DNA of 64,000 bases from an uncultured Spirochaetota bacterium (GCA_963820525.1 CAWGAA010000001.1:2294203-2358202), one strand, 5' to 3'; positions 4,301 through 61,502 are shown, numbered from the stretch's first letter. The notes: generated by a model from the letters alone, not told the origin. Program-made: numbers and translations.

Positions 4301-4501
4301 GATGTTCTGGGCCAGCTGCGTATGGGGACCGGCCGCGGGCCCGAGGATGGGCAGCCCTGCCCGGGGATGGACGAAGAGCTCCCGGGGAAGCTCGAATATC
4401 GTCCCATGGCGGCGATATTCGCCGAGGGCTCGAATCAGAAGCTCGCTGTAGGGAAGCTGACGCATCGCGCCGCTCAATGCCTTTCTCCCGGTCCCCGTCA
4501 T
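1362..4501 (-). CDS. ygfK: YgfK-like putative selenate reductase subunit, split by a +/-1 frameshift. Reads as ORF 1739..4501 (920 aa, glutamate-synthase small-chain-like flavoprotein) plus ORF 1362..1829 (C-terminal 2x[4Fe-4S] ferredoxin domain).
   Basis: N-terminus (MR.LPYSELL.R...Y) through LSTMHGCPP, GAGPAGLAA and GAGNTAMD matches E. coli YgfK end to end. The last ~110 aa (CLGC..C.KCVEVCPNRAN...CNECGNCATFCPW) continue in another frame. The two frames overlap at a CCCCCCC (+strand G7) run at 1812..1818; adding one base rejoins them. Confidence 0.85.
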
Positions 4502-6066: not shown

Positions 6067-7301
6067 GCGTCGGATACGCATGCGTGAGCTGCGGCCGCAC
6101 CTATCAGACCGACGAGGTCATCTACCTGTGCCCGGCGTGCAGCGCTGAGAAGGCGGCGGCCGGAGGCGGGTTTCAAAAGGGGATCCTCATAACGACCTTC
6201 CAGCCCCGGGAGAGCTTCAGGCCGGGCCTCCCCATGGACCCGAAGCTGTTCCTGCCGCTCGCCGCGGAAAACGCCGCGTTCAGCGCCGGAAACACCCCCC
6301 TGGTCGAGCCCCATGCCCTGCGCCGAAAGACGGGCTTCCCGCGGCTCTTTTTCAAGAACGAAGCGCTCAACCCCTCCGGATCGCTCAAGGACAGGGCTTC
6401 GATGCTCGTCGTCGAGCAGGCGAGGCTCCACGGGGAGAAGCGGATCGCCCTTGCATCCACCGGGAACGCCGGAGCTTCAATGGCCTGCGCGGGGGCAGCC
6501 TGCGGCCTCCAGGTCGTCCTCTTCGTTCCGGCCGCGGCGCCGCGCGCCAAGCTCCTTCAGGCGCTTCTCTTCGGGGCCAAGGTTGTCCCCATTGCGGGGC
6601 CCTACGACGAGGCGTTCCGCCTTTCCATCGAATACACGACGCGCCATGGGGGGATCAACCGCAACACGGGCTTCAACCCGTTCACGATCGAGGGCAAGAA
6701 AACGGTCTCGATCGAGATCTTCAATCAATTGGACTGCATGGTACCCGATGCCGTGTACGTTCCCACGGGAGACGGGGTCATTCTCGGCGGCGTATGGAAG
6801 GGGTTTTCGGACCTCGTTACGGCAGGCCTGGCCGAGAAGATGCCTGCCCTGATTTCGGTTCAGGTGGATGGCAGCAATGCCATCGCCCGCAGCTGGCGGG
6901 AGGGGCGCCAGGTGGCACTTGAGCGCGCATCGACCATCGCAGACTCCCTTGCGGTGGCCTCCCCCGTCAACGGCGAGATGGCCCTCCAGTGCCTGGCGAA
7001 GACGGGCGGCAGGGCCGTCGAAGTGAGCGATGAAGAGACGAGCCGCGCCCAGGCCGAGCTGTGCAAAGAGAGCGGTCTTTTCGTGGAGCCTTCGTCGGCG
7101 GCGGCGTGGGCGGGGTTCAGGAAGGACATTCCGAATCTTGATCCGGGCTCCCGCGTCGTGGTCCTCCTCACGGGAACGGGTTTCAAGGACATCGCCGCGG
7201 CGGAAAAGCTCGTGAGCCTTCCCGACGCCTGTGCCCCGGATCTCGATAGCGCCCTTCGCCTGCTGGAGAGCTCCTATGGGATCAAAAGCGGAGAGCCGTA
7301 G
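6063..7301 (+). CDS. Threonine synthase family PLP enzyme with N-terminal CxxC...CxxC zinc ribbon.
   Basis: GTG start at 6063 (VSVGYACVSCG..LCPACS) overlaps the previous stop; the longer 5922 ORF is rejected. NPSGSLKDR PLP-lysine motif is as in B. subtilis-type ThrC. TGNAGAS loop. Confidence 0.7.
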   Translation: MSVGYACVSCGRTYQTDEVIYLCPACSAEKAAAGGGFQKGILITTFQPRESFRPGLPMDPKLFLPLAAENAAFSAGNTPLVEPHALRRKTGFPRLFFKNEALNPSGSLKDRASMLVVEQARLHGEKRIALASTGNAGASMACAGAACGLQVVLFVPAAAPRAKLLQALLFGAKVVPIAGPYDEAFRLSIEYTTRHGGINRNTGFNPFTIEGKKTVSIEIFNQLDCMVPDAVYVPTGDGVILGGVWKGFSDLVTAGLAEKMPALISVQVDGSNAIARSWREGRQVALERASTIADSLAVASPVNGEMALQCLAKTGGRAVEVSDEETSRAQAELCKESGLFVEPSSAAAWAGFRKDIPNLDPGSRVVVLLTGTGFKDIAAAEKLVSLPDACAPDLDSALRLLESSYGIKSGEP

Positions 7302-8445
7302 CGGCTGTCGCGCTCCGCCTGTCCATCCCGAGCTTCCGGCAGACGGCATCCCCCGTCTTCTCCGCCATGAGCCGGAAGGTGGTGAGCTTGCCGCCCACGA
7401 TGGTCACCATGCCCTCAACCCCATCGCTTTCGGCGTGATCGATCACGGTGAAATCCCTGCTCAGCCGCCGCGGATCGGGATCGGCGCCGAGGCTCGCCCT
7501 GCCCCGGGGGTCGTAGAGGGGACGGACGGCGGACCAGCTGTGAACCACCCTCGCCTCCTCGAGGCCGGGAAGGAGGGCGCCGATCCGCTTGCGCATGAGA
7601 TCCAGCTCCCACTCTCCCACCTGCCTGTCTTCGGGGTCACTCGTGGCAACGGTTGTCGTTCCCGCGATGCTGTGCCGCCCCCGCGGGAGGATGACGTCTC
7701 CATCGTCGGGAGGCTGGAGCGTGTTGAGCACGCTGCCCACCAGGCGGCCTTCGAAGGCCACCATGGCGCCCCGCGCGAGGTCCAGCCGGAGGCTTGCTCC
7801 TGCCATGGCGGCCACCTCGCCGCTCCAGGGCCCGGCCGCGTTCACGACGAGCCGGCATGAGAGTCGGCGGATTTCCCCCGAGCGCACATCAGAGAGGCGG
7901 GCTTCGGCGACCCCATCCTCCGCGGAAGAAAGGCTGTCCAGACGGTGGAAGGTGAGAAACCGTGCGCCCAATGATTCCGCGTTCTTTCGAAGAAGCCCGC
8001 AGAGGCGCAGGGAATGGCATACGGCGTCGGGAACCTCGAAAGCGCGCCTGACTGCGCGCGCCAGGCCGGGCTCCCGCTTGAAGGCTTCCCCGACGGACAG
8101 CTCCCCCACCGTGATTTCAGCTCGCTTGCATGCCGCCAGCCACTCCTCGACGAACGACTCCGGCCCCGTGGGCAGGAGAACGAAGAGCCCCCCCGTATCG
8201 TCGATTGCCTGAGGCGCAAGCCGCTTGAGAAGCGCATTCTCCCGAAAGCATTCTCCGGCCGTGACGGGATCGGACACCGCGTAGCGCGCTCCCGAGTGCA
8301 GAAGACCATGATAGCGCCCGCTGGTCCCGCCCCCGATGTCACCCCTTTCAACGAGGGTGACGGCGAACCCGCGCAGCGCGAGGTCCCACGCCACCCCGCA
8401 GCCGGTGACGCCTCCTCCGATTACCAGCACCTCAGGTTCCATCAA
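7282..8445 (-). CDS. FAD-dependent oxidoreductase, GlpA/GlpD (glycerol-3-phosphate dehydrogenase) N-terminal family, short form.
   Basis: 387 aa. VLVIGGGVTGCGVAWDLALRG...RYHGLLHSGARYAV closely matches the GlpA N-terminus but lacks the C-terminal half. Confidence 0.65.
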   Translation of the reverse strand: MMEPEVLVIGGGVTGCGVAWDLALRGFAVTLVERGDIGGGTSGRYHGLLHSGARYAVSDPVTAGECFRENALLKRLAPQAIDDTGGLFVLLPTGPESFVEEWLAACKRAEITVGELSVGEAFKREPGLARAVRRAFEVPDAVCHSLRLCGLLRKNAESLGARFLTFHRLDSLSSAEDGVAEARLSDVRSGEIRRLSCRLVVNAAGPWSGEVAAMAGASLRLDLARGAMVAFEGRLVGSVLNTLQPPDDGDVILPRGRHSIAGTTTVATSDPEDRQVGEWELDLMRKRIGALLPGLEEARVVHSWSAVRPLYDPRGRASLGADPDPRRLSRDFTVIDHAESDGVEGMVTIVGGKLTTFRLMAEKTGDAVCRKLGMDRRSATAATALRF

Positions 8446-8536
8446 TCCAAAATACAGTCATCGGGCCCGCCGTGACGAGCGAGATGAGTCAATAGCGGGA
8501 TGTTTGGCTGGGATTCATGAGCGGCAATTACGTTCT

Positions 8537-8562
8537 CTATGTTCAGTATATACAAAACATAG
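8537..8562. promoter_or_regulatory. Inverted repeat CTATGTT-N12-AACATAG in an AT-rich divergent promoter region. Candidate operator.
   Basis: Perfect 7-bp arms. Sits ~35 nt upstream of the GbsR/MarR-like gene start (8595), which has AGGAGG at 8583..8588. Confidence 0.4.
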
Positions 8563-8594
8563 AAAACCTGTTATGAGATTACAGGAGGCCTTGC

Positions 8595-9062
8595 ATGCCG
8601 GACGATGCAAAACAGCTCTTCGTCGAGAAAGCCGGTCTGCACTTCATGCAGCTCGGCATGCCCCGGATGGCGGGCCGGATTTTCGGCTGGCTTCTCATAT
8701 CGGACTCCCCGACGGCCACTATGGGGGAGCTTGTGAAGGCATTGAAGGCCAGCAAGGGCTCCATCAGCAGCATGACCCGGCTCCTGATTCGGATGCAGCT
8801 GATAGAGCTCGCCAGCAGGGCGGGAGAGCGGCGCGATTTCTACGGGATCAGGGAGGATGCCTGGGTCAACGCGCTCTCCGCCCGCGTCGAGCAGGCGCGC
8901 GATTTCAGAAAGCTGGCCGAACGCGGGCTTGAGGCACTGGCAGAAGAGCCGCCGTCTCGGCGCGAGCGGCTGAAGGAGATGCTGGGGGTCTTCTCTTTCC
9001 TGGAGCGCGAGCTTCCCCTGCTGACCGAGGACTGGAAGCGGGAGCGCGGTGCTCATATGTGA
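8595..9062 (+). CDS. GbsR/MarR-type winged-helix transcriptional regulator.
   Basis: 155 aa. GRIFGWLL...MGELVKALKASKGSISSMTRLL matches the GbsR/OpcR-like HTH. Strong SD. Confidence 0.65.
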   Translation: MPDDAKQLFVEKAGLHFMQLGMPRMAGRIFGWLLISDSPTATMGELVKALKASKGSISSMTRLLIRMQLIELASRAGERRDFYGIREDAWVNALSARVEQARDFRKLAERGLEALAEEPPSRRERLKEMLGVFSFLERELPLLTEDWKRERGAHM

Positions 9063-9216
9063 CGGGCCATCGGCGCTCAATTTACTTGACGCTCAGGCTC
9101 CCGCCGAGGCATTTTCCACTCAATGGGTTTCGCGTGCGTCATTGCGGCAACCGGGACGGAGAAACGCCTGAAACTCAAAAACAGCACCTCTACAAGGAGA
9201 TTGTAGATGGAAGAAA

Positions 9217-9648
9217 GTGCCTATAAAGAGAGATGGAGAACAAATTCAAGAGGTAGCGCTCGTGAATCAACAGAAACAGAGGATCTCCGTCCTCATCGTC
9301 GACGACCATAAAATAGTTCGCGAAGGCCTCGCCGGTCTCTTGAAGCTCGAGCATGACATCGAAGTGGTTGGAGAGGCTCCGGACGGCCCGCAGGCAATCG
9401 AGCTCGCCCAGAAGCTCAAGCCTGACGTCGTGATAATGGACATCAACATGCCCGGCATGAACGGGATCGAGACCACGAAGATCCTCACCTCAAGGATACC
9501 GGGGATAAAGATCATCGGCCTTTCCGTTCACTTCGAGATCGACATCGCCTCCGCGATGAAGGAAGCCGGCGCCATCGCCTACGTGACCAAGGGAGGCGCA
9601 TCGGAAGACCTTCTTTCCGTCATTCGAAGCTGTCACAAACAGCAATAA
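9217..9648 (+). CDS. Stand-alone response-regulator receiver (REC) domain protein, NarL/FixJ-type, with no output domain.
   Basis: ISVLIVDDHKIVREGL...PDVVIMDINMPGMNGIE...IKIIGLS. Likely start is GTG at ~9262 with AGAGG 8 nt upstream. Confidence 0.75.
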   Translation: MPIKRDGEQIQEVALVNQQKQRISVLIVDDHKIVREGLAGLLKLEHDIEVVGEAPDGPQAIELAQKLKPDVVIMDINMPGMNGIETTKILTSRIPGIKIIGLSVHFEIDIASAMKEAGAIAYVTKGGASEDLLSVIRSCHKQQ

Positions 9649-12766: not shown

Positions 12767-13242
12767 CGATCGCCTCCCAGGTCCCCTGACAGCCCACCCT
12801 TGGACAGAAAGGCGGCGACCTGGTCGGGGGTGACTATGTAGGTGGTCGCCATGCGGTCCACCCACGTGTAGTCCAGCTTCTCGTCGCTCTTGTATTTGGC
12901 CTCCACCTCCTTGTTGAACCCCTTGCCGGCGAGGGCCATCTCTCCGCTCGACGCGATCTGGCTCACGTCCTCGGAGCCCGCCTTGAGCACGTACTTTTTT
13001 GTCGAAAGGGCGGAGAGGCTCACCCATCCCTGCTTGCCGGAAAAGCTCACCTTGGCCCACGCGCCCTGGGTGGACTGGACCTCGACCCGGTCCGTATAGG
13101 CGAGCTTGGCGAGGACTTTCCCCAGGAAGCTTGGCGTGGCCCTGATGAACGTCTCCTTGACCGAAACGCTCATCTCATCGCCAAAGGCGGCGGCCGTACA
13201 GATGAGCAGAACGGCTGCCCACACAATCCGCAATCGCGACAT
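12763..13242 (-). CDS. Secreted protein with a bacterial SH3-like domain.
   Basis: Start reassigned to ATG at 13242 (MSRLRIVWAAVLLICTAAAFG signal) with GGAGGG SD. GAWAKVSFSGKQGWVSLSAL looks SH3b-like. Confidence 0.5.
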   Translation of the reverse strand: MSRLRIVWAAVLLICTAAAFGDEMSVSVKETFIRATPSFLGKVLAKLAYTDRVEVQSTQGAWAKVSFSGKQGWVSLSALSTKKYVLKAGSEDVSQIASSGEMALAGKGFNKEVEAKYKSDEKLDYTWVDRMATTYIVTPDQVAAFLSKGGLSGDLGGDR

Positions 13243-13352
13243 GGGGACCCTCCTCTCGCCGGGCGCGGCGATCCTTCCCGCCATGGTAGCGAGAATCCCG
13301 CCCGTTGTCATCATTCTCTTGATTTTTTCCCGTCTTTCTGTACACCAGAAGC

Positions 13353-14006
13353 GTGACGGCCAAAGAGAGGAAAGAGGCGCTCCTCGGCATCGGCCAGAGG
13401 CTCTTCGCGCTCCAGGGGTATCGCGATGTGAGCGTCCGGGACATCACGGAGGCGGCGGGCCTGGGGACGGCCAGCTTCTACACCTACTTCCCCAGCAAGG
13501 AATCCTTCTACGCCCAGATCATCGACCGGCTCGAGCAGAGAGAGATCAAGGAAATCGAGAGGCGGGTGGGCGGGTTCCAGTCCCCGCTCAACAAGCTGAA
13601 AGCCCTCTTCCGCTCCATCATGAGCGACATGCAGAGAAACGAGATCCTCCGCGGCGTCTACGCCCGGGAGAAGCGCTTCCTGTACCCCGGCCTGGCAGAG
13701 GGCACCCTGCGTGAAACCGGCCTTCCCGCCTACTTCGAGGGGCTGGTCGAGAAGATACTGGCGGAAGGCGCCAGGAAGGGGATCTTCCGCACGAGCGTGT
13801 TCAGGAATCCCAAGCAGATGCTGCTCGCCATCTTCAGATCGCTTCTCATGGACAGCCGGCCCGGCAGCGCCGAGGATCTCATCTCGGACGTGTCCCTGCT
13901 GGTGGAGCGCGGGATAAAGAGGTGGCTGCGCCTGCGCATGAGGGATGAGAGGCTGGACAGACGGGCCTCGCGGATCCCCGGAAGCCCTGAAAAACAAACC
14001 GAATAA
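13353..14006 (+). CDS. TetR/AcrR family transcriptional regulator.
   Basis: N-terminal HTH: [27 protein letters not shown]. Confidence 0.85.
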
Positions 14007-14012
14007 TCCATT

Positions 14013-14022
14013 CGAATATTCG
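14013..14022. promoter_or_regulatory. 10-bp perfect palindrome CGAATATTCG immediately after the tetR stop, followed by a tandem TTGACA-TTGACA-TCGACG direct repeat (14114..14131) upstream of the operon.
   Basis: Read directly. Candidate TetR operator and promoter elements. No canonical -10 was found. Confidence 0.3.
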
Positions 14023-14140
14023 GCCCGCATTCCCCGCGCGCGGCCCCGGGGGCGGGATTCTCGCGAAAAACCCCGCGTTTTTCGATGATTTTTGGTATTC
14101 CCGGCGCATTCTGTTGACATTGACATCGACGAATGACCAG

Positions 14141-14956
14141 ATGGTTTTTGCGGGGAGGAAGAATGTGATCGACGTTCTGGCCATCCGTGGTGGAAACGAC
14201 AAATCAGGCATGCCTGAGAACGTGCGGGAAGTGTGCATCCGCCGGGGAGAGATCGTCGGGGTGGTGGGGCCGACGGGAAGCGGAAAAAGCTCCCTGATCG
14301 CGGATATCGAGCAGCTGGCCCAGGGCGACACACCGACGCGCAGGCACATCCTGATCAACGGCCGCGAGCCGCTGCGGGAGGAGCGCACAGACCCGAAGAG
14401 AAAAATAGTGGCCGAGCTCTCGCAGAACATGAACTTCCTTGCCAACATGTCGGTGGGCGATTTCCTGCGGCTCCACGCCAAGTGCAGGAGGGCTCACGGC
14501 GTGGAGGCCGCTCACGTCATCGAGCTTGCCAACGGGCTCACGGGAGAGCCGATCAGGGAGGACGAGGAGCTCACCATCCTGAGCGGCGGCCAATCCCGCG
14601 CGCTCATGGTGGCCGACGTGGCGCTCATCAGCGACTCCCCCATCGTATTGGTGGACGAGATCGAGAACGCAGGGATCAAGAAGCACGATGCCCTGAGGCT
14701 CCTCTCGGGCCACGGAAAGATCGTTCTCGTGGTGACCCACGACCCGGTGCTCGCCCTGATGGCCGAGCGGCGGATCATCATGAAAATGGGCGGCATGGCG
14801 AAGGTGGCCGAGACCTCCCGGGGAGAGAAGATCCTCGCCCAGAGGCTTCGGAGGATGGACGAATGGATGCTCACCCTGCGGGAGCTGGTCCGGCAGGGCG
14901 AGCCGCTTGAGGACGTGACCCATCTCGCGGGGGTGCAATCGGGGATCATGGCGTGA
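14141..14956 (+). CDS. Stand-alone ABC-type ATPase (nucleotide-binding domain only).
   Basis: Walker [10 protein letters not shown], signature LSGGQ, Walker B LVDE, H-loop VTHD. Alternative start is GTG 14165, which has GGGAGG 6 nt upstream. Stop overlaps the next start. Confidence 0.7.
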
Positions 14957-15654
14957 AGCTCATCATCGTTGCCGGGACGCCCGGCTCCGGCAAAACCTCC
15001 ATCCTGGTGAACGCCGTGAGGCTCCTCAAGGCGGGCGGACGGTCGGTTTCCGTGGTGAAGATCGACTGCCTTGCCACCGACGACGACGAGCGCTACGCGC
15101 GGCTTTCCATCCCGACTCTCGTCGGGCTCGCCAAGGACGTCTGCCCGGATCACTACACCGTCTACAATATGGAGGAAATCCTCCAGTGGGCCAACGGCCT
15201 CTCGACGGAGTTCCTCCTCGTGGAGACGGCGGGGCTCTGCCACAGGTGCGCGCCCTACACTTCCGGATCCGCCGGGGTCTGCGTCATCGATGCCACCTCG
15301 GGACCAAACACCCCCTTGAAGGTCGGCCCCCTGTTGAGCACGGCCAACATCATCGTGATCACCAAGGGAGACGTCATCTCACAGGCGGAGAGGGAGATCT
15401 TCCGGGAGCGCCTCTTGGAGATGAATCCCCGGGCAATGCTGATCGACGCCAATGGCTTAAGCGGTCAGGGCGCAGCCGAGCTCGTGGCGCTTGTCCGGGA
15501 CTGGCCGGAGGTGAATCTGGAAGACGAGCGGCTGCGGCACACGGCTCCGCTTTCCGTATGCACCCTCTGCGCGGGAGAGACCCGGGTGGCGCGGGAGCAC
15601 CACCGGGGGATCCTGCGGCGCATCGACGGTTTCCAGTCCTACACGGGTGAGTGA
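14953..15654 (+). CDS. G3E-family P-loop GTPase (HypB/UreG/CobW/MeaB-like metallochaperone NTPase).
   Basis: [10 protein letters not shown]-loop, ETAGLCHRC (Cys-His-x-Cys), TKGD (NKxD-like), C-terminal [12 protein letters not shown] start overlaps the upstream TGA. Confidence 0.65.
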
Positions 15655-16321
15655 AGTGAAGAGTGACCCCGCCCGGCACCTCCCCGGCCACAACTGCGGC
15701 GCATGCGGCCACGCGCGCTGCGACTCTTTCGCCGCCGCGCTCGCGGAGGGCAGGGCGGGCGTCACGGACTGCCTCGTTCTCCAGCAGGAACGCTACAGCG
15801 GCCAAAGGAGGCTCCTGGAAGAGCTTTTCGGGGGCCGGGAACGGGAGCGGGTGGGACCACGGCCCGAAAAACCCGTGGGGCTGATAGACGGATACGAGGC
15901 GGATTTCGTTCTCGCTCCCCTTCGGGGGGAGGGATCGTGCCGGGAGATTCTCATGCAGGTGACTCCTTCGGCGGTGGGCGCCGGGGACGTGATTCGCTAC
16001 AGGCCCTTGGGATGCCCGGTCACCCATTTCGCGCGGATCATAGAAAAAAGAGACGGGCTTCTCGTGGTGCATGTTGTTGGCCCGCGGCACAGGCTCGGGG
16101 ACGAGAGCTTCAACTTTGCGGAAATCGGCCTGTGCATGGTGATCGGTTTCGAAGGCGAGGTCCGGGGCACCCCGCCCGCGGTGGGCGAGACGGTGCGGTT
16201 CATGCCGGCCGAGTGCATGATGCAGAAGGTCCATTCCGGCGTCGTGGTGAGCTGTGAAGGAAAGAGAGTGCGACTCGAAGGGATAGACCTGAAGGTCTGG
16301 GCCCCCCCGGTGAAAAGATGA
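15647..16321 (+). CDS. Fe-S cluster domain protein with an RnfB-N-terminal-like C-x2-C-x4-C-x16-C motif and an uncharacterised C-terminal domain.
   Basis: [39 protein letters not shown] overlap with the upstream gene and ATGA overlap with the downstream gene. Confidence 0.5.
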
Positions 16322-17607
16322 ATCGCCATTACCACCTCTCGTGCGTGGCTTGCGGAAAGGCGCACGAGGACTCGAAAGAGGGTTTCTTCCTGGACTGCAC
16401 GGAGGAGCATCCCCCTTCCCTGCTTCGGGCGGTCTACAACAGAAAGGATTTCAACGTCAGGGAAGACCTCAGCGGAATCTTCCGCTATCTCGACTGGCTT
16501 CCCGTTCGAAGGTCTCTGGAATGCGGCGGCCGCCCCGTGGTCTACAGGAGCGAGCGGCTCGCCGGGAAGGTGGGCCTCGAGAGGCTGTTCGTCGCTTTCA
16601 GCGGCTACTGGCCCGAGCGGGGCGCGGGGATGGAGACATGCAGCTTCAAGGAGCTTGAGGCCCTGGCCGTTCTTGCCCGAATCCCCCTTGAAAGCGAGAA
16701 AAGCCTCGTGGTTTCCTCGGCGGGCAACACAGCCCGCGCCTTTCTCCAGATAGCGTCCCTCAATCGCATCCCCATCCTGGTTGTCGTTCCCGAGTCCGCG
16801 CTCCCCGACATGTGGATGACCGTGGAGAGGCACCCCGTCATCAGGCTGGCCGTCGTGAAGGGCAATGCCGACTACCTGGACGCCATCGAGCTGGGCAATG
16901 CGATCGCCACCCTCGACGGCTTCCACCCCGAGGGGGGAGCCCGGAACATCGCCCGGCGTGACGGCATGGGCACGGTGCTGCTCTCCGCGGTGGAAGAGCT
17001 GGGTGAGATTCCCGCGCATTATTTCCAGGCCGTGGGAAGCGGGACGGGGGCAATCGCGGCCTGGGAGATGGCGGTGAGGCTCACAGCGGACGGCAGATTC
17101 GGCTCGCGCGGAATGAGGCTGCACCTGGTGCAGAACGAGCCTTTCGCCATCATGACCCGCGCCTGGCAGGCGGGAAGCAGGGAGCTCCCCCAAACGGATC
17201 CCCTCGAGGCGAAGAAAAAGATCGCCCTGATGCATTCCCGCGTGCTCTCCAACCGGAAGCCTCCCTATGGAATCGCCGGCGGAGTGTTCGACGCTCTTTC
17301 GGACACCGGTGGGCTGATGTATTCGGTTTCCAATGAGGAGGCGCGGGAGGCGGGCGGCCTCTTCGAATCCCTGGAGGGCGTCGATCTCGACCCCGCGGCA
17401 GAGGTGGCCCTCGCCGGAATGATCCAGGCCGTAAAGGCGGGAAGCGTGAATCCGGAAGAGACGGTGCTGCTCAACGTCACCGGCGGGGGGAGCGCACGGC
17501 TGGCGGCGGAGGGCAGAGCGCGGAAGGTGGAGCCTGACTTCATTTTCACGCCGGAGGACGCGAAGAGGATTCGAAGCGTTGAAACCCTGTTGATCAAGGC
17601 GAGCTGA
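16318..17607 (+). CDS. ThrC/cysteate-synthase-like fold-type II PLP enzyme with an N-terminal CxxC zinc ribbon.
   Basis: HLSCVACGKAHED...LDCTEEH, then METCSFKELEA (S-F-K PLP-lysine motif of the threonine synthase family) and VSSAGNTARA. Confidence 0.6.
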   Translation: MNRHYHLSCVACGKAHEDSKEGFFLDCTEEHPPSLLRAVYNRKDFNVREDLSGIFRYLDWLPVRRSLECGGRPVVYRSERLAGKVGLERLFVAFSGYWPERGAGMETCSFKELEALAVLARIPLESEKSLVVSSAGNTARAFLQIASLNRIPILVVVPESALPDMWMTVERHPVIRLAVVKGNADYLDAIELGNAIATLDGFHPEGGARNIARRDGMGTVLLSAVEELGEIPAHYFQAVGSGTGAIAAWEMAVRLTADGRFGSRGMRLHLVQNEPFAIMTRAWQAGSRELPQTDPLEAKKKIALMHSRVLSNRKPPYGIAGGVFDALSDTGGLMYSVSNEEAREAGGLFESLEGVDLDPAAEVALAGMIQAVKAGSVNPEETVLLNVTGGGSARLAAEGRARKVEPDFIFTPEDAKRIRSVETLLIKAS

Positions 17608-17621
17608 GGAGGTCCGGCTTC

Positions 17622-18866
17622 ATGGTTGATCTGTTCGACAAGTGCAGGGGAGAGGGGGGGTATTTCGGCGCCTTCCGAGTCAAGGATGACATGTACTATT
17701 CCCGGCCCGTTCTGGAAGGAACCCCGGGGCCCCGGATGACCTTTCAGGGAAAAGAAGTGGTCGTGTGGGCCATCAACAACTACCTCGGGATGGCGGGAAA
17801 CGCCGAGGTGAAAAAGGCCGCCGCCGCATCCCTGGAGCGGTGGGGCACCTACACCCCGATGGGCTCCCTGATGCTCACGGGCAACACCGAGGCCCACATG
17901 CGGCTTGAGCGCCTGCTTTCCGAATTCGTCGGAAAGCAGGCCGCAAACCTCTTCAACTACGGCTACCTCGGGGTCATCGGAACCATCAGCGCCCTGGTGG
18001 GGCCCGAGGACGTGATCGTCATGGACCGCCTCAGCCACGCAAGTATCGTGGACGGGGTGGTCCTCGCCTCGGCCGGCAGGCGCTTCCGGCCCTTCAAGCA
18101 CAATGACCTCGACAACCTCGAGTTCCATCTCAAGGGGGCAAACCGGGACAGGAAGGGCGGCATCCTCATCGTCACCGAAGGGGTGTACGGGATGAGGGGA
18201 GACCTGGCCGACCTCCCGGGCATCTGCGCCCTGAAGGAGAAGTACGGGGCGCGCCTGTTCGTTGACGACGCGCACGGCTTCGGCGTGGTAGGGGAGAACG
18301 GGCGCGGGATCGGGGAGCACTTCGGCGTGCAGGAGAGGATCGACCTGTACTTCTCCACCTTCGCCAAGTCTTTTGCCGCAATCGGAGGCTTCACGGCCGG
18401 GGAAGAGGAGCCGATCCGCTACATCAAGTACAACGCCCGCACCAACGTGTTCGCCAAGAGCCTCCCCATGGTCTTCGTCGATGCGATAGCGACCTCACTC
18501 GAGGTGATCAAGAGCAGGCCGGAGCTTCGTCGGCGCATGTGGCGGATCTCGGAAAGGCTTCAGAAGGGCCTCACGGACCTCGGCTACGACATCGGAGACA
18601 CCAGGACACCCATCACCCCCGTGTACGTGCCGGCAGGCGACGTTCAGACCGCCATGGCGATGATCCGGATGCTCCGGGAGGAATACGGGATCTTCGTTTC
18701 CGGGGTCATGTACCCCGTGGTCCCGCCCGGGGTGGTCATGTTCCGGATGATTCCCACCGCCTCCCACACGGAAGAGGACGTGGACAGGACCCTCTCCGGG
18801 TTCAAGAGCATGCGAGACCGGCTGAAGCTGGACTTGAGCCAGAAGCCCTCGCTGAAGAACAGGTAG
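17622..18866 (+). CDS. Alpha-oxoamine synthase family PLP enzyme (BioF/Kbl/serine palmitoyltransferase-like acyl-CoA/ACP:amino acid C-acyltransferase).
   Basis: VDDAHGFGVVGENGRG and STFAKSFAAIGGF PLP-lysine, closest to the SPT GTFTKSFG motif. GAGGAGG SD. Confidence 0.8.
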   Translation: MVDLFDKCRGEGGYFGAFRVKDDMYYSRPVLEGTPGPRMTFQGKEVVVWAINNYLGMAGNAEVKKAAAASLERWGTYTPMGSLMLTGNTEAHMRLERLLSEFVGKQAANLFNYGYLGVIGTISALVGPEDVIVMDRLSHASIVDGVVLASAGRRFRPFKHNDLDNLEFHLKGANRDRKGGILIVTEGVYGMRGDLADLPGICALKEKYGARLFVDDAHGFGVVGENGRGIGEHFGVQERIDLYFSTFAKSFAAIGGFTAGEEEPIRYIKYNARTNVFAKSLPMVFVDAIATSLEVIKSRPELRRRMWRISERLQKGLTDLGYDIGDTRTPITPVYVPAGDVQTAMAMIRMLREEYGIFVSGVMYPVVPPGVVMFRMIPTASHTEEDVDRTLSGFKSMRDRLKLDLSQKPSLKNR

Positions 18867-19003
18867 ATCAGGGCTCACGTTGAAGGCGCGGGCCCGTGTG
18901 CCGCAGCGAGAAAAAACGGGCGCGCCAGCCATGGGGCGCCCGCTGCACGCCCGCTGCTCTTCCTTGACACGCGGCCGCGATTCAAGGACACTTGCCGCTG
19001 ATC

Positions 19004-19930
19004 ATGAGTCAGCGGCGGTCGGACAGGTTTGCCGGGAGGCCATGGCAGTCTCCCACGCTCATGGTATGCGCCTTTTTGCTTGCCGCCCTGCTCTCCTCCG
19101 GCTGCGGTCCGAGCCGCGGCGAGGTCGCCTCCACCTCAGCTTCGGCCAACTCCACAATCCAGATCACGGGGTCCGACACCCTGGTCAACCTGGCCCTTGC
19201 ATGGGCCGAAGCCTACATGAACCTGCACCCCGACGTTCGTATCTCCGTGACGGGAGGCGGCTCGGGCACGGGCATCGCCTCCCTGATAAACGGCACGATC
19301 AACATCGCCGACGCGTCCCGCGAAATGACGGCGGAAGAGATCGCCGCGGCGCGGAAGAACGGAATCGATCCCGTTCGATTCACGGTGGCCCTCGATGCCA
19401 TCGCCGTCGTTGTCAACCTCGAGAACCCCGTCACGGGCCTTACCCTGCCCCAGCTCTCGCAAATCTACACGGCCAGGATCTCCACCTGGAGTGAAGTAGG
19501 CGGCGACAACCGTCCCATCGTGCTTCTCTCACGCGAGTCCAACTCGGGAACCTACGTATACTTCCTCGAGCGCGTCGTGCGCCTGGGAGAGAAAGGCAAC
19601 AGCGCCCTGTTCTCCCCCGACACCCTGCTGATGCCCTCATCCGAGGGGATAAGCGTCGAGGTGAAGCAGAACCCGAACGCCATCGGCTATGACGGCCTCG
19701 GCTACGTCACCCCCCAACAGAAGGTTGTCGCGGTCGCTTCCGAGCCGGGCAGGCCGTTCGTTCTTCCCTCCTCGAAGACGGTCCTGGACGGCTCGTACCC
19801 GATCGCCCGGCCCCTGTTCATGTACACGGCGGGCGAGCCCTCCGGGGCGACCAGGCAGTATCTGGACTGGATCATGACCGACGGCCAGGCCATCGTGAAA
19901 AACCTCGGCTTCGTGCCGCTCAAGGAGTAG
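19004..19930 (+). CDS. pstS: Phosphate ABC transporter substrate-binding lipoprotein PstS.
   Basis: Lipobox LLSSGC. TGSDTL...GGGSGTG motif. Followed by pstCAB. Confidence 0.8.
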   Translation: MSQRRSDRFAGRPWQSPTLMVCAFLLAALLSSGCGPSRGEVASTSASANSTIQITGSDTLVNLALAWAEAYMNLHPDVRISVTGGGSGTGIASLINGTINIADASREMTAEEIAAARKNGIDPVRFTVALDAIAVVVNLENPVTGLTLPQLSQIYTARISTWSEVGGDNRPIVLLSRESNSGTYVYFLERVVRLGEKGNSALFSPDTLLMPSSEGISVEVKQNPNAIGYDGLGYVTPQQKVVAVASEPGRPFVLPSSKTVLDGSYPIARPLFMYTAGEPSGATRQYLDWIMTDGQAIVKNLGFVPLKE

Positions 19931-19935
19931 GGAAA

Positions 19936-20847
19936 ATGAGCGCGGCGAAGGACCGGCAGTCAACAAGGGCGCGCCGATGGGAAATCGCCATCGAAGCCTT
20001 CATCCGGGCCCTTGGCTTCTCCACCGTCGCCTTGGTCTGCCTTATCTTTTTGTTCCTGCTTCGCGAAGGGCTTCCCGCCTTCTTCGAGGTCGCCCCCGGA
20101 AATCTTTTTAGCTCCCACTGGTATCCCACTTTCGGCTTCTTCGGCACCCTGCCGCTCATCCTGGGCTCCATTCTCGTCACGCTGGTGGCCATCGTGATCG
20201 CGCTGCCCCTGGGGGTGGCCACCGCCGTATTCGTCCGGGAGGTGGCGCCGGGGTGGGTCCGCGAGATCCTCAAGCCGATGATCGAGATCCTGGCCGGAAT
20301 TCCCTCCGTGGTGCTGGGATTCTTCGGCATGACCATCATCGCCCCGTTCGTGCGCCAGGCCCTCGGCGCGCCCACGGGCCTTACGGCGTTCACCGGCGCC
20401 CTCGTGCTCGCCTACATGAGCCTTCCCACGATCATCAGCGTGGCCGAAGACGCGCTGGACGCGGTTCCCAAGGGCTACCGGGACGCGGGCCTGGCGATGG
20501 GAGCGACGAAGTGGCAGACGATCTGGCGGGTGGTGGTCCCCGCGGGACGCTCCGGGATCCTCACCGCCGTCATGCTCGGCATGGGGCGCGCCATCGGAGA
20601 GACCATGGCGGTGATGATGGTGACGGGAAACGCGGCGCGCATGCCCCTCGATTTTTCCTCGCTCATGGAGCCGGTGCGAACCATGACGGCCACCATCGCC
20701 GCGGAGATGGGTGAGGTGGCCCGGGGGAGCACCCACTACCACACCCTGTTCGCCATCGGAATCATCCTCTTCCTCATCACCTTCGCCACGAACCTCGCCG
20801 CCGCATCGGCGATCTTCAAGAAGCGGCGCCAGGGAGGGCTTCGCTGA
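19936..20847 (+). CDS. pstC: Phosphate ABC transporter permease PstC.
   Basis: 303 aa. Membrane EAA-like loop. Operon position. Confidence 0.85.
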   Translation: MSAAKDRQSTRARRWEIAIEAFIRALGFSTVALVCLIFLFLLREGLPAFFEVAPGNLFSSHWYPTFGFFGTLPLILGSILVTLVAIVIALPLGVATAVFVREVAPGWVREILKPMIEILAGIPSVVLGFFGMTIIAPFVRQALGAPTGLTAFTGALVLAYMSLPTIISVAEDALDAVPKGYRDAGLAMGATKWQTIWRVVVPAGRSGILTAVMLGMGRAIGETMAVMMVTGNAARMPLDFSSLMEPVRTMTATIAAEMGEVARGSTHYHTLFAIGIILFLITFATNLAAASAIFKKRRQGGLR

Positions 20848-21692
20848 TGAACCGCTACCTGGTCCAGCGCCTCGGTTTCATCCTCCTGGGCGCGATTGCC
20901 CTGATCGTGGTCATCCCCATCCTGATCGTGGTGGCAACGATCGTGGCCAAGGGCCTGGGGGCGATGAGCTGGGAGTTCCTCTCCTCCATGCCCCGGGGCG
21001 GCATGAAGGAGGGGGGCATCCTTCCCGCCATTGTCGGGACGGTCCTCCTCACCCTGGGCTGCGCGGCGGCCGCGGTGCCCGTCGGGGTTGGAGGGGCGAT
21101 CTATCTTTCCGAATACGCGCGCGACACGCGGCTCACGCGGGCGATACGCCTTGCCATCGTGAACCTGGCGGGAATCCCCTCGATCGTGTACGGGCTCTTC
21201 GGGCTGGGGATGTTCGTCCTGTTCTTCCGCTTCGGCGCCTCGATCCTTGCCGGGTCGCTGACCCTGGCGATCATGACCCTTCCGGTGATCATCTCCACGG
21301 GAGAGGAGGCGCTGCGCTCCGTGCCCGTGGAGTTTCGAACCGTGTCGGCCAGCCTCGGCGGCACGCGCTGGCAGGGCATCCAGAACATCGTGCTACCCCA
21401 GGCTCTTCCCGGAATCATCACGGGAGTGATCCTGGGGCTCCTCCGCGCCGCGGGAGAAACGGCCCCCATCCTTTTCACGGTGGCCGCCTTCTACCTTCCC
21501 CGCCTGCCCAGCTCGCCGTTCGACCAGACCATGGCCCTGCCCTATCACCTCTATGTCATCAGCACGCAGGTGCCCGGCATGCCCTCCAAGGTTCAGTACG
21601 GGACCGCCCTCGTGCTCCTGGCCTTCGTTCTCTCGCTCAACGTGGTCGCCACTCTCATCAGGAGGCATTTCCGGAGGAAGAGGCAGTGGTAG
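20847..21692 (+). CDS. pstA: Phosphate ABC transporter permease PstA.
   Basis: 281 aa, paralogous to pstC. ATGA overlap with pstC. Confidence 0.85.
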   Translation: MNRYLVQRLGFILLGAIALIVVIPILIVVATIVAKGLGAMSWEFLSSMPRGGMKEGGILPAIVGTVLLTLGCAAAAVPVGVGGAIYLSEYARDTRLTRAIRLAIVNLAGIPSIVYGLFGLGMFVLFFRFGASILAGSLTLAIMTLPVIISTGEEALRSVPVEFRTVSASLGGTRWQGIQNIVLPQALPGIITGVILGLLRAAGETAPILFTVAAFYLPRLPSSPFDQTMALPYHLYVISTQVPGMPSKVQYGTALVLLAFVLSLNVVATLIRRHFRRKRQW

Positions 21693-21703
21693 AGGGCAGA
21701 TCC

Positions 21704-22462
21704 GTGGTCAACCCCAAGATCATCATTGAAAGCCTTTCCTACTCCTATGGAGGCAAGTCCTCGCTCGAGGATATCAGCCTCTCCATCCCGGGCAAGGCGG
21801 TCACCGTCTTTTTCGGCCCGGCCGGCGGCGGAAAGACCACCCTGATGCGCCTGATCAACAGGCTCAACGACCTGGTGGGAGAAACCCGCATGACGGGAAG
21901 GATCCTCCTCGACGGTGAGGATATCTATGCGCCGAACACCGACGTGACGCGCCTGCGCCGCCTCGTGGGCATGGTCTTCGCCCTGCCCCTCCCCCTGCCC
22001 GGCACGATCCGGGAGAACGTCGTCTACGGCCCACGCCTTGCGGGAACGCGGAACAAGGCAACGCTTGAGGGAATCATCGAGCGAAGCCTCGCCCAGGCGG
22101 CACTCTGGGGCGAGGTGAAAGACCGCCTGGACAGCCCCGCTTCGAGCCTCTCCGGGGGCCAGCAGCAGAGGTTGTGCATCGCGCGCAGCCTCGCCCTGGA
22201 GCCGGAAGTGCTCCTCCTCGACGAGCCGACCTCCGGCCTGGATCCGATCTCGACGGCCAAGGTGGAAGAATCCCTCCTGGAGCTCAAGAAGAGCTACGCC
22301 ATCATCATGGTTCCCCACAGCGTCGGGCAGGCGGCCCGGATCGCGGATTACGCCGCCTTCTTCCTCATGGGCCGGCTGGTGGAGTTCGACGAGGGTCCCA
22401 CCGTCTTCACCTCTCCTCGGGAGAAGCAGACCGAGGACTACATCACGGGCAGGTTCGGGTAG
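21704..22462 (+). CDS. pstB: Phosphate ABC transporter ATP-binding protein PstB (copy 1).
   Basis: GTG start with [30 protein letters not shown]-terminal EDYITGRFG. The N-terminal part of the 583-aa track ORF is rejected. Confidence 0.85.
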   Translation: MVNPKIIIESLSYSYGGKSSLEDISLSIPGKAVTVFFGPAGGGKTTLMRLINRLNDLVGETRMTGRILLDGEDIYAPNTDVTRLRRLVGMVFALPLPLPGTIRENVVYGPRLAGTRNKATLEGIIERSLAQAALWGEVKDRLDSPASSLSGGQQQRLCIARSLALEPEVLLLDEPTSGLDPISTAKVEESLLELKKSYAIIMVPHSVGQAARIADYAAFFLMGRLVEFDEGPTVFTSPREKQTEDYITGRFG

Positions 22463-22465
22463 GCC

Positions 22466-23233
22466 ATGGGTGGAATATCGGTTGATGGGCTTTCTTTCTC
22501 CTATGGCAGCCGACTGGCGCTGTCCGACGTGCGGGTCGAGATCGGGGAGCGGAGGATCACCGCCCTGATCGGCCCGTCGGGCTGCGGCAAGTCCACGTTC
22601 CTCAGGTGCCTCAACCGGATGAACGACACGATCCCCTCTTCCCGCGTGAAGGGGAGCGTGAAGCTGGACGGCCAGGACATCTATGCTCCGGGCACCGACG
22701 TGGTGGCGCTTCGAAGGCGCGTGGGCATGGTCTTCCAGAGACCCAACCCCTTCCCCCAGTCCGTGTTCGACAACGTCGCCTTCGGCCCCCGCGTGCTGGG
22801 CACGCACAGCGGCAGGGAGCTCGCCGACGCGGTGGAGCAGAGCCTGCGGGGCGCAGACCTGTGGAACGAGGTGAAAGACTCGATGTCCCAGGACGCCCTT
22901 GCCCTATCGCTGGGCCAGCAGCAGCGGCTGTGCATCGCGCGCGTGATCGCCGTGAAGCCCGAGGTGATCCTCATGGACGAGCCCTGCTCGGCCCTCGACC
23001 CCATTGGCACGCTTCGCATCGAGGAGCTGATGCGGACCCTGGTGAACGACTACACCATCGTCATCGTGACGCACAACATGCAGCAGGCGGCGCGGGTTTC
23101 CGACTACACCGGCTTCTTCTGGCTGAACGAGGAGAGGGCGGGAATACTGGCGGAGTACGGGCCCACGGAGGAGCTTTTCACGAGCCCGCGGGACAAGCGT
23201 ACTGAAGACTACATCACCGGCCGATACGGATAA
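22466..23233 (+). CDS. pstB: Phosphate ABC transporter ATP-binding protein PstB (copy 2, tandem paralogue).
   Basis: [31 protein letters not shown]. Confidence 0.85.
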
Positions 23234-23248
23234 CAGGAGGGCATTGTC

Positions 23249-23920
23249 ATGCCACGGGAAAGATTCGAGCACGAACTGCAGCGCCTGCAGGCGGATGTCC
23301 TCGCGCTGGGACATGTGGCGCAGAAAGCGCTGGTTGATTCCGTCGAGACCCTCAGGCTGCAGGATCTGGACAAGGCCCGCGCGCTCATCGAGGGAGACCG
23401 CGCCATCAATGAGAAGCGCTTCGCACTGGAAAACGAGGTCATCACCCTGATCGCGACCCAGCAGCCGATGGCGGGAGACCTCCGCATCCTCGCCGAGGTG
23501 CTGGAGCTCGTCACCGAGATGGAGCGCATCGCGGACTACGCCAAGGGCATCGCGAACATCGCGCTCATGATCGGCAAGGAGCCCCTCCTGAAGCCCCTGG
23601 TCGACATTCCCCGCATGGCCGCCAAGGCGAGCGATATGCTGGGCCGGGCGCTGGACGCGTTCATCCGCAGGGACGTGGATCTGGCCCGCGCCATCCCCAA
23701 GGAAGACGTCGAGGTGGACGCCCTCTACGAGCAGATCTACAGGGAGCTGGTCACCTACATCATGCAAAACCCGAAGAACATCGATCAGGCCACCCGCCTC
23801 ACCTGGGTGGCCCACAACCTGGAGCGCGTTGCCGACAGGGTGGGAAACATCTGCGAAAGGGTGGTTTTCTCCGTCACGGGCAAGATCGAGGAGCTGGCGG
23901 GGCCCCCGGAGACGCAATAG
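23249..23920 (+). CDS. phoU: Phosphate signalling complex protein PhoU.
   Basis: Two PhoU repeats with E/D...R motifs. Operon position. Confidence 0.9.
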   Translation: MPRERFEHELQRLQADVLALGHVAQKALVDSVETLRLQDLDKARALIEGDRAINEKRFALENEVITLIATQQPMAGDLRILAEVLELVTEMERIADYAKGIANIALMIGKEPLLKPLVDIPRMAAKASDMLGRALDAFIRRDVDLARAIPKEDVEVDALYEQIYRELVTYIMQNPKNIDQATRLTWVAHNLERVADRVGNICERVVFSVTGKIEELAGPPETQ

Positions 23921-43635: not shown

Positions 43636-43828
43636 ACCGGCCTCCTCCCGATGACGGCGCTCCCGGTTTCCGGCAAGTCGAGGCTGTTTCCCTGTTCTTA
43701 ACCTCGCCTGCCGCCCGCCCACATACAGTATCGTCAGCTCGCTCACCGGGCCCACATGGGCAAACCATTAAAGTCTACCCCGTTTTTCTTCGATTTCATG
43801 AACAAATTCCTTAACATCCGTTAAGCGC

Positions 43829-61493: not shown

Positions 61494-61502
61494 CACGTCT
61501 CC

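Follow-up and report, generated by a model that had tools for sequence, protein, structure and literature searches.

A three-gene module shared by a predicted sulfonolipid operon of an uncultured Spirochaetota bacterium and the coenzyme M genes of methanogens: a candidate for sulfite supply in anaerobes

To our knowledge, sulfonolipids are known almost only from Bacteroidota, where they are bioactive lipids. Coenzyme M, as far as we know, is needed by every methanogen, and in both known routes to it the first step adds sulfite to a carbon skeleton; many methanogens can grow with sulfide as their only source of sulfur. This study concerns positions 13353-18866 of a 64,000-nt stretch of DNA from an uncultured Spirochaetota bacterium (the window), where a gene for a TetR-family regulator is followed by three genes, here called the trio, for a soluble ATP-binding cassette (ABC) ATPase, a G3E-family GTPase and an iron-sulfur (Fe-S) protein, and then by genes for a cysteate synthase and a cysteate-C-fatty acyltransferase (CFAT). 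The lipid half of this locus adds a new member to a known pathway; its lineage is new to the pathway, and its cysteate synthase is of the archaeal type. The link of the trio to both sulfite-dependent sulfonate synthases, cysteate synthase here and ComA in methanogens, appears to be new.

ComA combines sulfite with phosphoenolpyruvate and cysteate synthase combines it with O-phosphoserine, and each enzyme thereby makes a sulfonate (PMC3087415, PMC9457059). Coenzyme M synthesis requires sulfite, the origin of which in sulfide-grown methanogens has been described as unclear, and the only source that has been proposed, Dsr-LP, is lacking in certain methanogens (PMC3448663, PMC6286981). Sulfite is also toxic and irreversibly damages methyl-coenzyme M reductase (MCR) (bioRxiv 10.1101/2024.03.05.583561; PMC3448663). 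MMP16 is the coenzyme M synthase ComF (PMC12068725). Literature searches (MJ1681, cysteate synthase, phosphosulfolactate with sulfite, Dsr-LP, M. maripaludis essential genes) returned no paper on the trio, in agreement with the original prediction, which was made from the window alone and did not recognise the trio as a described system.

The trio and its partners in Bacteria and Archaea

The domains of the trio proteins had been called correctly at the outset: a soluble ABC ATPase, a G3E GTPase with CHxC and, at its C-terminus, CxxC, and an Fe-S domain of the RnfB type attached to a domain of no known type. The ATPase contains Walker A (GPTGSGKS), signature (LSGGQ), Walker B (IVLVDE) and H-loop (THD) motifs that are kept across 70 homologues. 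It scored below every NCBIfam transporter-family cutoff, its best PDB matches were ordinary transporter nucleotide-binding domains (NBDs) at no more than 48 bits, and no ABC permease or binding-protein gene was found beside the trio in the more than 80 loci examined. The GTPase met only the general domain model PF02492 (47.2 bits against a cutoff of 20.7); its scores for the named G3E subfamilies were 45 bits for HypB (cutoff 121.2), 22.8 for UreG (204.2) and 17.3 for MeaB (240.75). Invariant in the GTPase are GTPGSGKT, C39, E91TAGLC96H97RC99AP, C203xxC206 and C64-P-D-H67, the last of which lines up with the CPH of UreG. The Fe-S protein matched PF04060 with 47.9 bits against a cutoff of 23, and the four cysteines of its CX2CX4CX16C motif are invariant. 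The remaining approximately 145 residues matched no Pfam family, and the protein had no sequence match in the PDB; this part corresponds neither to the ferredoxin domains of RnfB nor to the TIM-barrel/corrinoid domain of CFeSP. Conserved residues of the C-terminal domain include C95, C120, C187, H124, H139, H193 and several Arg/Lys. Full-length family members have about 190-230 residues, none of the 150 best matches was a fusion, and the family was small, comprising 20 clusters at E<=1e-30 among 1.84 billion representatives.

No trio protein belonged to a curated NCBIfam or Pfam family beyond these superfamily domains, and none showed homology to CysD, CysN or CysH by Pfam/NCBIfam profiles. 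An assignment of the Fe-S protein as ComF/MJ1681 was rejected: ComF/MJ1681 is MMP16, of the unrelated COG1900 family, and the corresponding models TIGR03287 and PF01837 matched none of the six proteins of the locus. Identity to the window proteins over the first 86 loci was 54-73% for the ATPase (66% in Methanobacterium, 73% in Spirochaetia and 63% in Draconibacterium), 54-84% for the GTPase and 46-70% for the Fe-S protein, which is unusually high between Bacteria and Archaea for cross-domain proteins. In Methanococcus maripaludis, the GTPase was about 62-63% and the Fe-S protein 46% identical. The trio copies of ANME-1 were more distant, at 34-47% identity (GTPase 41%, Fe-S protein 34%). When the 86 loci and the window were searched together, the ATPase was present in 81 of the 87 sequences, and five of the six without it end at a contig edge just upstream of the GTPase gene.

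A scan of one genome per species gave 216 loci, and the best 80 were retrieved and tabulated. The order comA-ABC-GTPase-FeS was found in 57 of the 80, with a median gap of 3 nt between comA and the ATPase gene, and the order ABC-GTPase-FeS-cysteate synthase-CFAT in three; apart from loci with the trio alone, which are taken up below, the remainder were mostly cut by contig ends. With the Fe-S protein as the query, Methanobacterium, Methanothermobacter and Methanopyrus gave close homologues at 52-58% identity. M. maripaludis, which belongs to a different order, also has comA-ABC-GTPase-FeS (strain X1, CP002913.1, region 256314-273018, locus L109; trio at positions 7190-9366 of the locus), with spacers of 18, 19 and 1 nt, and comA with the trio was seen on divergent metagenome contigs as well (ComA 53% identity). 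Methanopyrus kandleri carries the trio without comA beside it. On three archaeal metagenome contigs (L100-L102), the order is MMP16-ABC-GTPase-FeS on one strand, with MMP16 directly upstream, and in a metagenome-assembled genome (MAG) of ANME-1 the trio is convergent with MMP16; the MMP16 neighbouring the trio scored 526.8 bits for TIGR03287 against a cutoff of 364. Among bacteria, the trio directly precedes cysteate synthase in L001, L002, L087 and L096, which represent the lineage of the window, and in four Firmicutes-type loci; the five-gene order first read from the window thus recurs in L087 and in Firmicutes.

Genes of sulfur metabolism were found around several of these loci. The genome of Spirochaetaceae CP070696 (L088) has a cysteate synthase-CFAT-TetR cluster without the trio, and there a gene for the sulfite-producing CysH (phosphoadenylyl-sulfate reductase; 161.3 bits against a cutoff of 154) lies divergently upstream of cysteate synthase; locus L089 likewise has cysteate synthase and CFAT without the trio. 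A PiT/PHO4-family gene, with the CysP sulfate permease as its sole NCBIfam match, comes after the trio in two Bacteroidota loci. The Fe-S protein of Methanothrix is encoded among genes for CysK, homocysteine synthase, a SufT-like protein and LarE, and several archaeal loci have genes for cysteine desulfurase and LarE-like sulfur transfer in the vicinity of the trio.

Further neighbours were recorded in the archaeal loci. Nickel-pincer cofactor genes lie near the trio in L109 (M. maripaludis CP002913.1, 5200-10590), L003 (12110-13156) and L093 (9026-9931); LarC of M. maripaludis is convergent, at a distance of 10 nt from the Fe-S gene, an ATP-dependent sulfur transferase of the LarE family adjoins the Fe-S gene in Methanothrix, and 45 Methanobacteriaceae loci encode a homologous PP-loop protein about 4 kb downstream. 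Upstream of comA, M. maripaludis has a gene with an AIRS domain (SelD/HypE-like). Behind the Fe-S gene, and in the same orientation, about 60 Methanobacteriaceae loci have a CofE-like gene (F420-0:gamma-glutamyl ligase family, score under the cutoff), for example 56 nt away in L003 (8743-9636); it could be a fifth member of the archaeal operon. In M. kandleri AE009439.1 (L090, 5561-6322), the ATPase is not called in the gene table, and about 900 nt upstream of the cobW-like gene encode a 53%-identical homologue.

Predicted functions of the lipid genes and of the trio

The ThrC-like protein of the window had been suspected of lying outside the threonine synthases, and it does. It scored 514.7 bits for the cysteate synthase equivalog TIGR03844 against a cutoff of 324.9, with no threonine synthase model above 70 bits (best 69.6, cutoff 303). 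Its best PDB match was 9k3c, 'Cysteate synthase' (396.2 bits, residues 5-424), and threonine synthases reached at most 46.3 bits; JGI names the identical protein cysteate synthase. The translation contains S109-F110-K111 where the match to the PALP domain (residues 106-389) begins, and we take SFK to be the PLP-lysine motif of the ThrC family, which would make K111 the lysine that holds pyridoxal phosphate (PLP). The oxoamine synthase matched two solved CFATs over its full length (28eh, 'Cysteate-C-fatty acyltransferase', 412.8 bits; 7u7h, 394 bits), compared with 247 bits for serine palmitoyltransferase (SPT), 226 for Kbl and 167 for BioF, and its PLP-lysine motif FSTFAK249S aligns with FSTFAKS of 28eh. 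It fell below every NCBIfam cutoff, ALAS included (SPT-CFB 310.5 against 640, Kbl 313.8 against 460, BioF 304.3 against 426.45), and groups with the solved CFATs outside BioF and Kbl. Since neither a threonine-synthase nor a BioF/Kbl grouping was found, the sulfonolipid reading stands; of the two lipid classes originally proposed, sulfono-like and sphingo-like, the first is borne out by the pairing of cysteate synthase with CFAT, and the second is not, given the SPT score of 247 bits against 413 and 394 for the CFATs.

From these similarities, the last two genes very probably make cysteate and 3-ketocapnine, the head group of a capnine-type sulfonolipid. The cysteate synthase would exchange the phosphate of O-phospho-L-serine for sulfite to yield L-cysteate and phosphate, and CFAT would condense cysteate with a fatty acyl thioester (acyl-CoA or acyl carrier protein) to 3-ketocapnine. 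The CFAT gene adjoins cysteate synthase in all related loci. In the Firmicutes loci L071, L076 and L083, the trio, cysteate synthase and CFAT are followed by a short-chain dehydrogenase/reductase (SDR) and a glyoxalase-family protein of 353 residues and two domains; L091 has these five genes too, with the SDR nearby on the opposite strand and a shorter glyoxalase-family gene of weaker match. The best specific family of the SDR in these loci is 3-ketodihydrosphingosine reductase. Its company with the five genes in all four loci indicates that the pathway context is conserved, and an SDR ketoreductase may be encoded elsewhere in the genome of the window.

The 353-residue glyoxalase/VOC protein is co-located with cysteate synthase in L071, L076, L083, L088 (6912-7973) and L089, that is, in at least three lineages, with 50-75% mutual identity among the five loci. 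The 64-kb window contains no two-domain glyoxalase protein, CysH, CysP or ComA. A CysK/CBS-like PLP enzyme of 488 residues (4600-6066, +) lies below every NCBIfam cutoff (cysK 108.5 bits against 351) and was rejected as a CapA-type cysteate synthase; it adjoins a 920-residue oxidoreductase with Fer4_20 and pyridine-nucleotide-disulfide domains (1739-4501, -), and the pair may serve further sulfur or amino-acid chemistry.

The partner enzymes of the trio offer a clue to its role. ComA matched the Pfam ComA family and cysteate synthase matched PALP; these families are unrelated, and the common ground of the two enzymes is the substrate sulfite and not a cofactor. The shared use of sulfite, the CysH gene in the place of the trio in L088, the CysP-like gene in two Bacteroidota loci, the sulfur-transfer genes nearby and the gap in the literature together point to the supply of sulfite. 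On the strength of these associations, the trio, a self-standing conserved module, may supply sulfite, or an equivalent oxidised form of sulfur, to a sulfonate-forming enzyme in anaerobes; we regard this as a plausible proposal, a little short of an even chance. The carriers of the trio are anaerobes and presumably live on reduced sulfur. The Fe-S protein would be the redox or catalytic subunit, with a low-potential RnfB-type [4Fe-4S] cluster and, in a beta-barrel domain of a new kind, a Cys/His metal site; the GTPase would load or gate this metal site, by analogy with UreG and HypB, and the ATPase would provide ATP-driven work for an unfavourable redox step, by analogy with SufC and component A2. 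Candidate sulfur substrates are sulfide or persulfide, thiosulfate and sulfate. Tight coupling between the generator and the consumer of sulfite would keep the toxic free form low.

A bolder version of this proposal can only be advanced tentatively. The trio would then be a new enzyme system that generates sulfite under anoxic, sulfidic conditions through a new metallocentre in a fold without known relatives. As tentatively, it would be the "step zero" that is missing from the route to coenzyme M in Methanobacteriales, Methanococcales, Methanopyrus, ANME-1 and others, and it is possible in the same measure that anaerobic bacteria recruited the trio along with the archaeal-type cysteate synthase for sulfonolipids.

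Several points weigh against these assignments. The case for the function of the trio is one of guilt by association entirely, and the 57 comA-linked loci represent one archaeal family, so that only about five to six associations are independent (Methanobacteriales, Methanococcales, the MMP16-linked archaea, ANME-1, the bacterial cysteate synthase operons and the CysH substitution). The neighbourhood with MMP16 fits the coenzyme M pathway generally more than it fits sulfite specifically. The trio stands alone in 13 of the 80 tabulated loci (Spirochaetota, most Bacteroidota and M. kandleri), and no Methanosarcina homologue was among the best 120 matches of the Fe-S protein or GTPase searches, which indicates that the trio is not universal among coenzyme M producers. 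C160 of the Fe-S protein, first counted as a fourth invariant C-terminal cysteine, is Ala in M. maripaludis. We know of no biochemical precedent for sulfite formation by proteins of these families, and the six-electron oxidation of sulfide normally needs sirohaem. For the lipid genes, the 64-kb window contains neither a homologue of the operon-linked SDR nor an N-acyltransferase, although a finished sulfonolipid would need both a ketoreductase and an N-acyltransferase.

The same neighbourhoods could also arise if the trio did not make sulfite and instead served sulfonate or coenzyme M synthesis as a sulfur-trafficking or metallocentre system, for instance by mobilising sulfide or persulfide, delivering electrons or maturing a shared partner. 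Its position beside MMP16/ComF, which uses sulfide and not sulfite, the UreG/HypB-like metal motifs of the GTPase and the cysteine desulfurase, LarE-like, SufT-like, CysK and homocysteine synthase genes of the archaeal loci would all suit such a role. We nevertheless consider it unlikely: the bacterial pathway genes beside the trio are cysteate synthase and CFAT only, with no thiolation step, the trio-less L088 has the sulfite-producing CysH beside cysteate synthase, and ComA and cysteate synthase have no common cofactor in need of maturation. A defensive function, in which the trio senses, sequesters, channels or detoxifies sulfite near the enzyme that uses it, seems rather improbable. It would agree with the toxicity of sulfite and its irreversible effect on MCR, with the co-transcription of the trio with sulfite consumers and with the conserved Arg/Lys of the Fe-S protein C-terminal domain, which could bind an oxyanion; yet the bacteria with this operon lack an MCR in need of protection, it is not obvious why a carrier or sensor should require an ATPase plus a metallochaperone-type GTPase, and the organism would still require a source of sulfite.

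Transport offers another explanation, in which the orphan ATPase energises a sulfate, thiosulfate or sulfonate importer encoded elsewhere, with the GTPase and Fe-S protein as accessories. The ABC_tran domain itself, the CysP-like permease after the trio in two Bacteroidota loci and the pst genes downstream in the window could be taken that way, but the lack of an ABC permease or binding-protein gene beside the trio, the scores below all NCBIfam transporter cutoffs and the translational coupling of the ATPase to the GTPase in the window, L087 and L091 make it very improbable, and the pst cluster has two PstB ATPases of its own. The idea that the trio matures or activates the two PLP enzymes of the operon, which had been considered from the window alone, where the trio is translationally coupled to their genes, is now barely credible. 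Neither PLP enzyme occurs in most trio loci: the trio follows comA, which is not a PALP protein, in Methanobacteriaceae (57 of the 80 loci, without a PLP enzyme) and Methanococcus and elsewhere lies beside MMP16/ComF or alone, and cysteate synthase and CFAT manage without it in L088 and L089. This argues that the trio is not their maturation system. Finally, the last two enzymes might lead to something other than a sulfonolipid precursor, for instance a sphingoid base built from serine, or free cysteate that serves another purpose, given that the ketoreductase and N-acyltransferase are not in the window and that the oxoamine synthase lies under every NCBIfam cutoff. Its preference for the solved CFATs (413 and 394 bits against 247 for SPT), and the constant company of CFAT and cysteate synthase in related loci, joined by the SDR in Firmicutes, leave this improbable.

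With sulfite supply as the preferred reading of the trio, its co-transcription with comA in two methanogen orders, including the genetically tractable M. maripaludis, provides a candidate sulfite source that can be tested by knock-out, and the presence of the trio in the comA operon of that species makes the hypothesis directly testable. If it is true, the trio would represent a new sulfur-redox enzyme system with a new protein fold, and efforts to mitigate methane might find a target in it. Whatever the trio does, the lipid genes extend predicted sulfonolipid synthesis to Spirochaetota-like and Firmicutes anaerobes.

Organisation of the operon and neighbouring features

Six genes on the + strand occupy the locus (Table 1), with a third-position GC content (GC3) of 0.78-0.87 and a codon bias typical of real genes. 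The regulator gene lies directly upstream of the trio, as first described.

Table 1. Genes and leader elements of the locus, in window coordinates
Feature	Coordinates	Strand	Evidence
TetR-family regulator	13353..14006	+	PF00440, 48.1 bits
Operator-like inverted repeat CCGAATAATC-N5-GAATATTCGG (putative)	13999..14023	.	contains CGAATATTCG; overlaps tetR stop codon
Hairpin CGAAAAAC-N5-GTTTTTCG, then T-rich tail	14064..14084	+	consensus scan
Tandem TTGACA TTGACA, -35-like element	14114..14125	+	promoter role inferred
Orphan ABC-type ATPase, single NBD with C-terminal helical tail	14162..14956	+	PF00005, 58.4 bits
G3E-family P-loop GTPase, distinct subfamily	14953..15654	+	PF02492, 47.2 bits
Fe-S protein: N-terminal RnfB/CFeSP-type [4Fe-4S] domain and C-terminal beta-barrel domain without known relative	15656..16321	+	
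Cysteate synthase, ThrC-like archaeal type	16318..17607	+	TIGR03844, 514.7 bits
Cysteate-C-fatty acyltransferase (CFAT), alpha-oxoamine synthase family	17622..18866	+	PDB CFAT matches

The five open reading frames behind tetR had been described as chained by overlapping stop and start codons. Three of the four junctions do overlap or abut, and the fourth is merely tight. The ATPase and GTPase genes share a GTGA overlap; the ATG in ATGGCGTGA is an internal Met codon of the ATPase gene and not the start of the next gene. At the GTPase/Fe-S junction, a start at GTG 15647 would give an 8-nt overlap and a start at GTG 15656 a 1-nt gap; the latter is the JGI gene call for the Fe-S protein and has a GGTGA Shine-Dalgarno-like motif upstream. 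The Fe-S and cysteate synthase genes overlap by ATGA, and cysteate synthase and CFAT are 14 nt apart, with GGAGG in the spacer. Two independently assembled JGI metagenome contigs matched the window with 99.6% identity over 13200-19000 and were collinear over 15.5-15.7 kb, and genome L087 has an identical gene order with 57-84% protein identity, which together indicate that the arrangement, overlaps included, is not an assembly artefact. The identical Fe-S protein (221-aa gene call) was recorded in JGI metagenomes only. The locus reads best as a TetR-regulated, translationally coupled operon of two functional modules, the trio and the cysteate synthase-CFAT pair; that the first supplies sulfite and the second makes cysteate and 3-ketocapnine is, taken together, about an even call.

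The mechanical reading frame of the ATPase begins at TTG 14114, inside the TTGACA repeat, and ATG 14141 is an alternative start. Homologues from three phyla and from archaea start at the residue of GTG 14162, which is preceded by GGGAGGA; the leader is thus about 155 nt long, and TTGACATTGACA at 14114-14125 is non-coding. The tandem TTGACA noted originally is therefore present in the leader, and L087 keeps only its first copy, within ...CATGTTGACAT. A sigma-70 consensus scan found no matching -10 element and no complete promoter at the repeat, and when the whole window was scanned against Rfam, the leader showed neither a riboswitch nor any other RNA. The hairpin at 14064-14084, only partly kept in L087, may separate tetR from the operon as a weak terminator or attenuator; in the consensus scan, the region contained no more terminator-like sites than shuffled sequence did.

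The palindrome CGAATATTCG (14013-14022) also proved real, as the inner part of the longer inverted repeat CCGAATAATC-N5-GAATATTCGG, and the whole block 13999-14023 is kept in the leader of L087. A relative in L088, upstream of cysteate synthase, has perfect 16-nt arms, ACCGAATAAATGAATA and TATTCATTTATTCGGT, built on CCGAATA/TATTCGG ends; in both L087 and L088 the related repeat lies beside the orthologous TetR gene. The window has two occurrences of the pattern CGAATA-N3-25-TATTCG, with 0.03 expected by chance. The TetR protein is 63% identical to the one upstream of the same operon in L087 and 43-44% identical to the one beside cysteate synthase-CFAT in L088; it combines a TetR_N helix-turn-helix domain with a nearby repeat shared with its orthologues. 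The conserved CCGAATA...TATTCGG repeat is a putative TetR operator, through which TetR probably represses the operon. Other regulators were seen elsewhere: two-component systems, and not TetR, precede the trio in Bacteroidota (L065, L069, L085, L086; HisKA_3 kinase and LuxR-type regulator) and Firmicutes (L071, L076, L091; LytTR regulator and GHKL kinase). With TetR or two-component genes before the trio, its bacterial expression appears to be signal-controlled in every lineage, by different regulators.

A phosphate-uptake cluster, pstS-pstC-pstA-pstB-pstB'-phoU (18992-23920), follows the operon after 125 nt, also on the + strand (PstS, TIGR02136 258 bits against a cutoff of 206.6), and this neighbourhood suggests a phosphate-sparing membrane lipid. 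In L087, three other genes lie between the two clusters. A phosphate-linked function of the trio itself, considered from its pst and PHO4 neighbours, was set aside: the PHO4-family gene matches CysP only, and the pst adjacency is interrupted in L087. A second phosphate-transport-like locus (60825-63999, -) has one reading frame with ABC_tran and two PhoU domains, probably pstB and phoU merged by the calling of reading frames, and another at 63112-63999. Two giant divergent proteins of 4770 residues (29443-43755, -) and 1772 residues (43912-49230, +) contain the bacterial Ig-like repeats Big_7, Big_13 and Big_3 and are probably surface adhesins.

Comparison with known systems

Soluble ABC ATPases include SufC of the SufBCD system for Fe-S assembly and component A2 of MCR activation, which has two NBDs. 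The trio ATPase is likewise a permease-less NBD linked with Fe-S and metal proteins; it differs in having a single NBD, unlike A2, and has no specific sequence relationship to either. The trio GTPase shares with UreG, HypB and CobW the P-loop G3E fold, the CP(D)H motif and Cys/His-rich motifs, but it lies far under the HypB, UreG and MeaB cutoffs, has invariant motifs and a C-terminal CxxC of its own, and is partnered by a 220-residue Fe-S protein instead of a urease, hydrogenase or B12 enzyme. With CysD, CysN and CysH, the trio is analogous in outline only, as an ATP-using protein, a GTPase and an Fe-S redox protein beside a sulfite consumer. No trio protein is homologous to them, and in L088 CysH itself occupies the place of the trio upstream of cysteate synthase. 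The yitB (cysH-like)-yitC-yitD (comA) genes of B. subtilis presumably represent a similar pairing of sulfite generator and consumer.

The capnine pathway of Bacteroidota (CapA, CapB/SulA/CFAT, CapC) has the same chemistry in its first two steps, and the acyltransferase of the window is clearly related to the solved CFATs 28eh and 7u7h. The cysteate synthases differ: CapA is CysK-like (NCBIfam model NF053679), whereas the enzyme of the window is of the ThrC-like archaeal type (TIGR03844). The Firmicutes relatives add an SDR at the position of the third step (3-ketocapnine reductase), and the window has no reductase gene. The window operon also carries the trio, which was not found described for the known pathway. 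In gut genomes, prioritised sulfonolipid enzyme sets were 99.99% from Bacteroidota (PMC11525784), whereas the closest relatives of the window operon are in Spirochaetota MAGs and Firmicutes.

The coenzyme M genes of methanogens (comA, cysteate synthase MA3297, MMP16/ComF) provide the other half of the comparison. The trio is absent from the coenzyme M pathway schemes of PMC3087415, PMC9457059, PMC12068725 and PMC12713407. The window has no comA, and no comDE or MMP16 match was found among its scanned reading frames. It shares with the methanogens the type of its cysteate synthase, and its trio is the module that follows comA or MMP16 in archaea; in contrast to the coenzyme M pathway, the cysteate formed here would go to an acyltransferase, and the product would be a lipid precursor.

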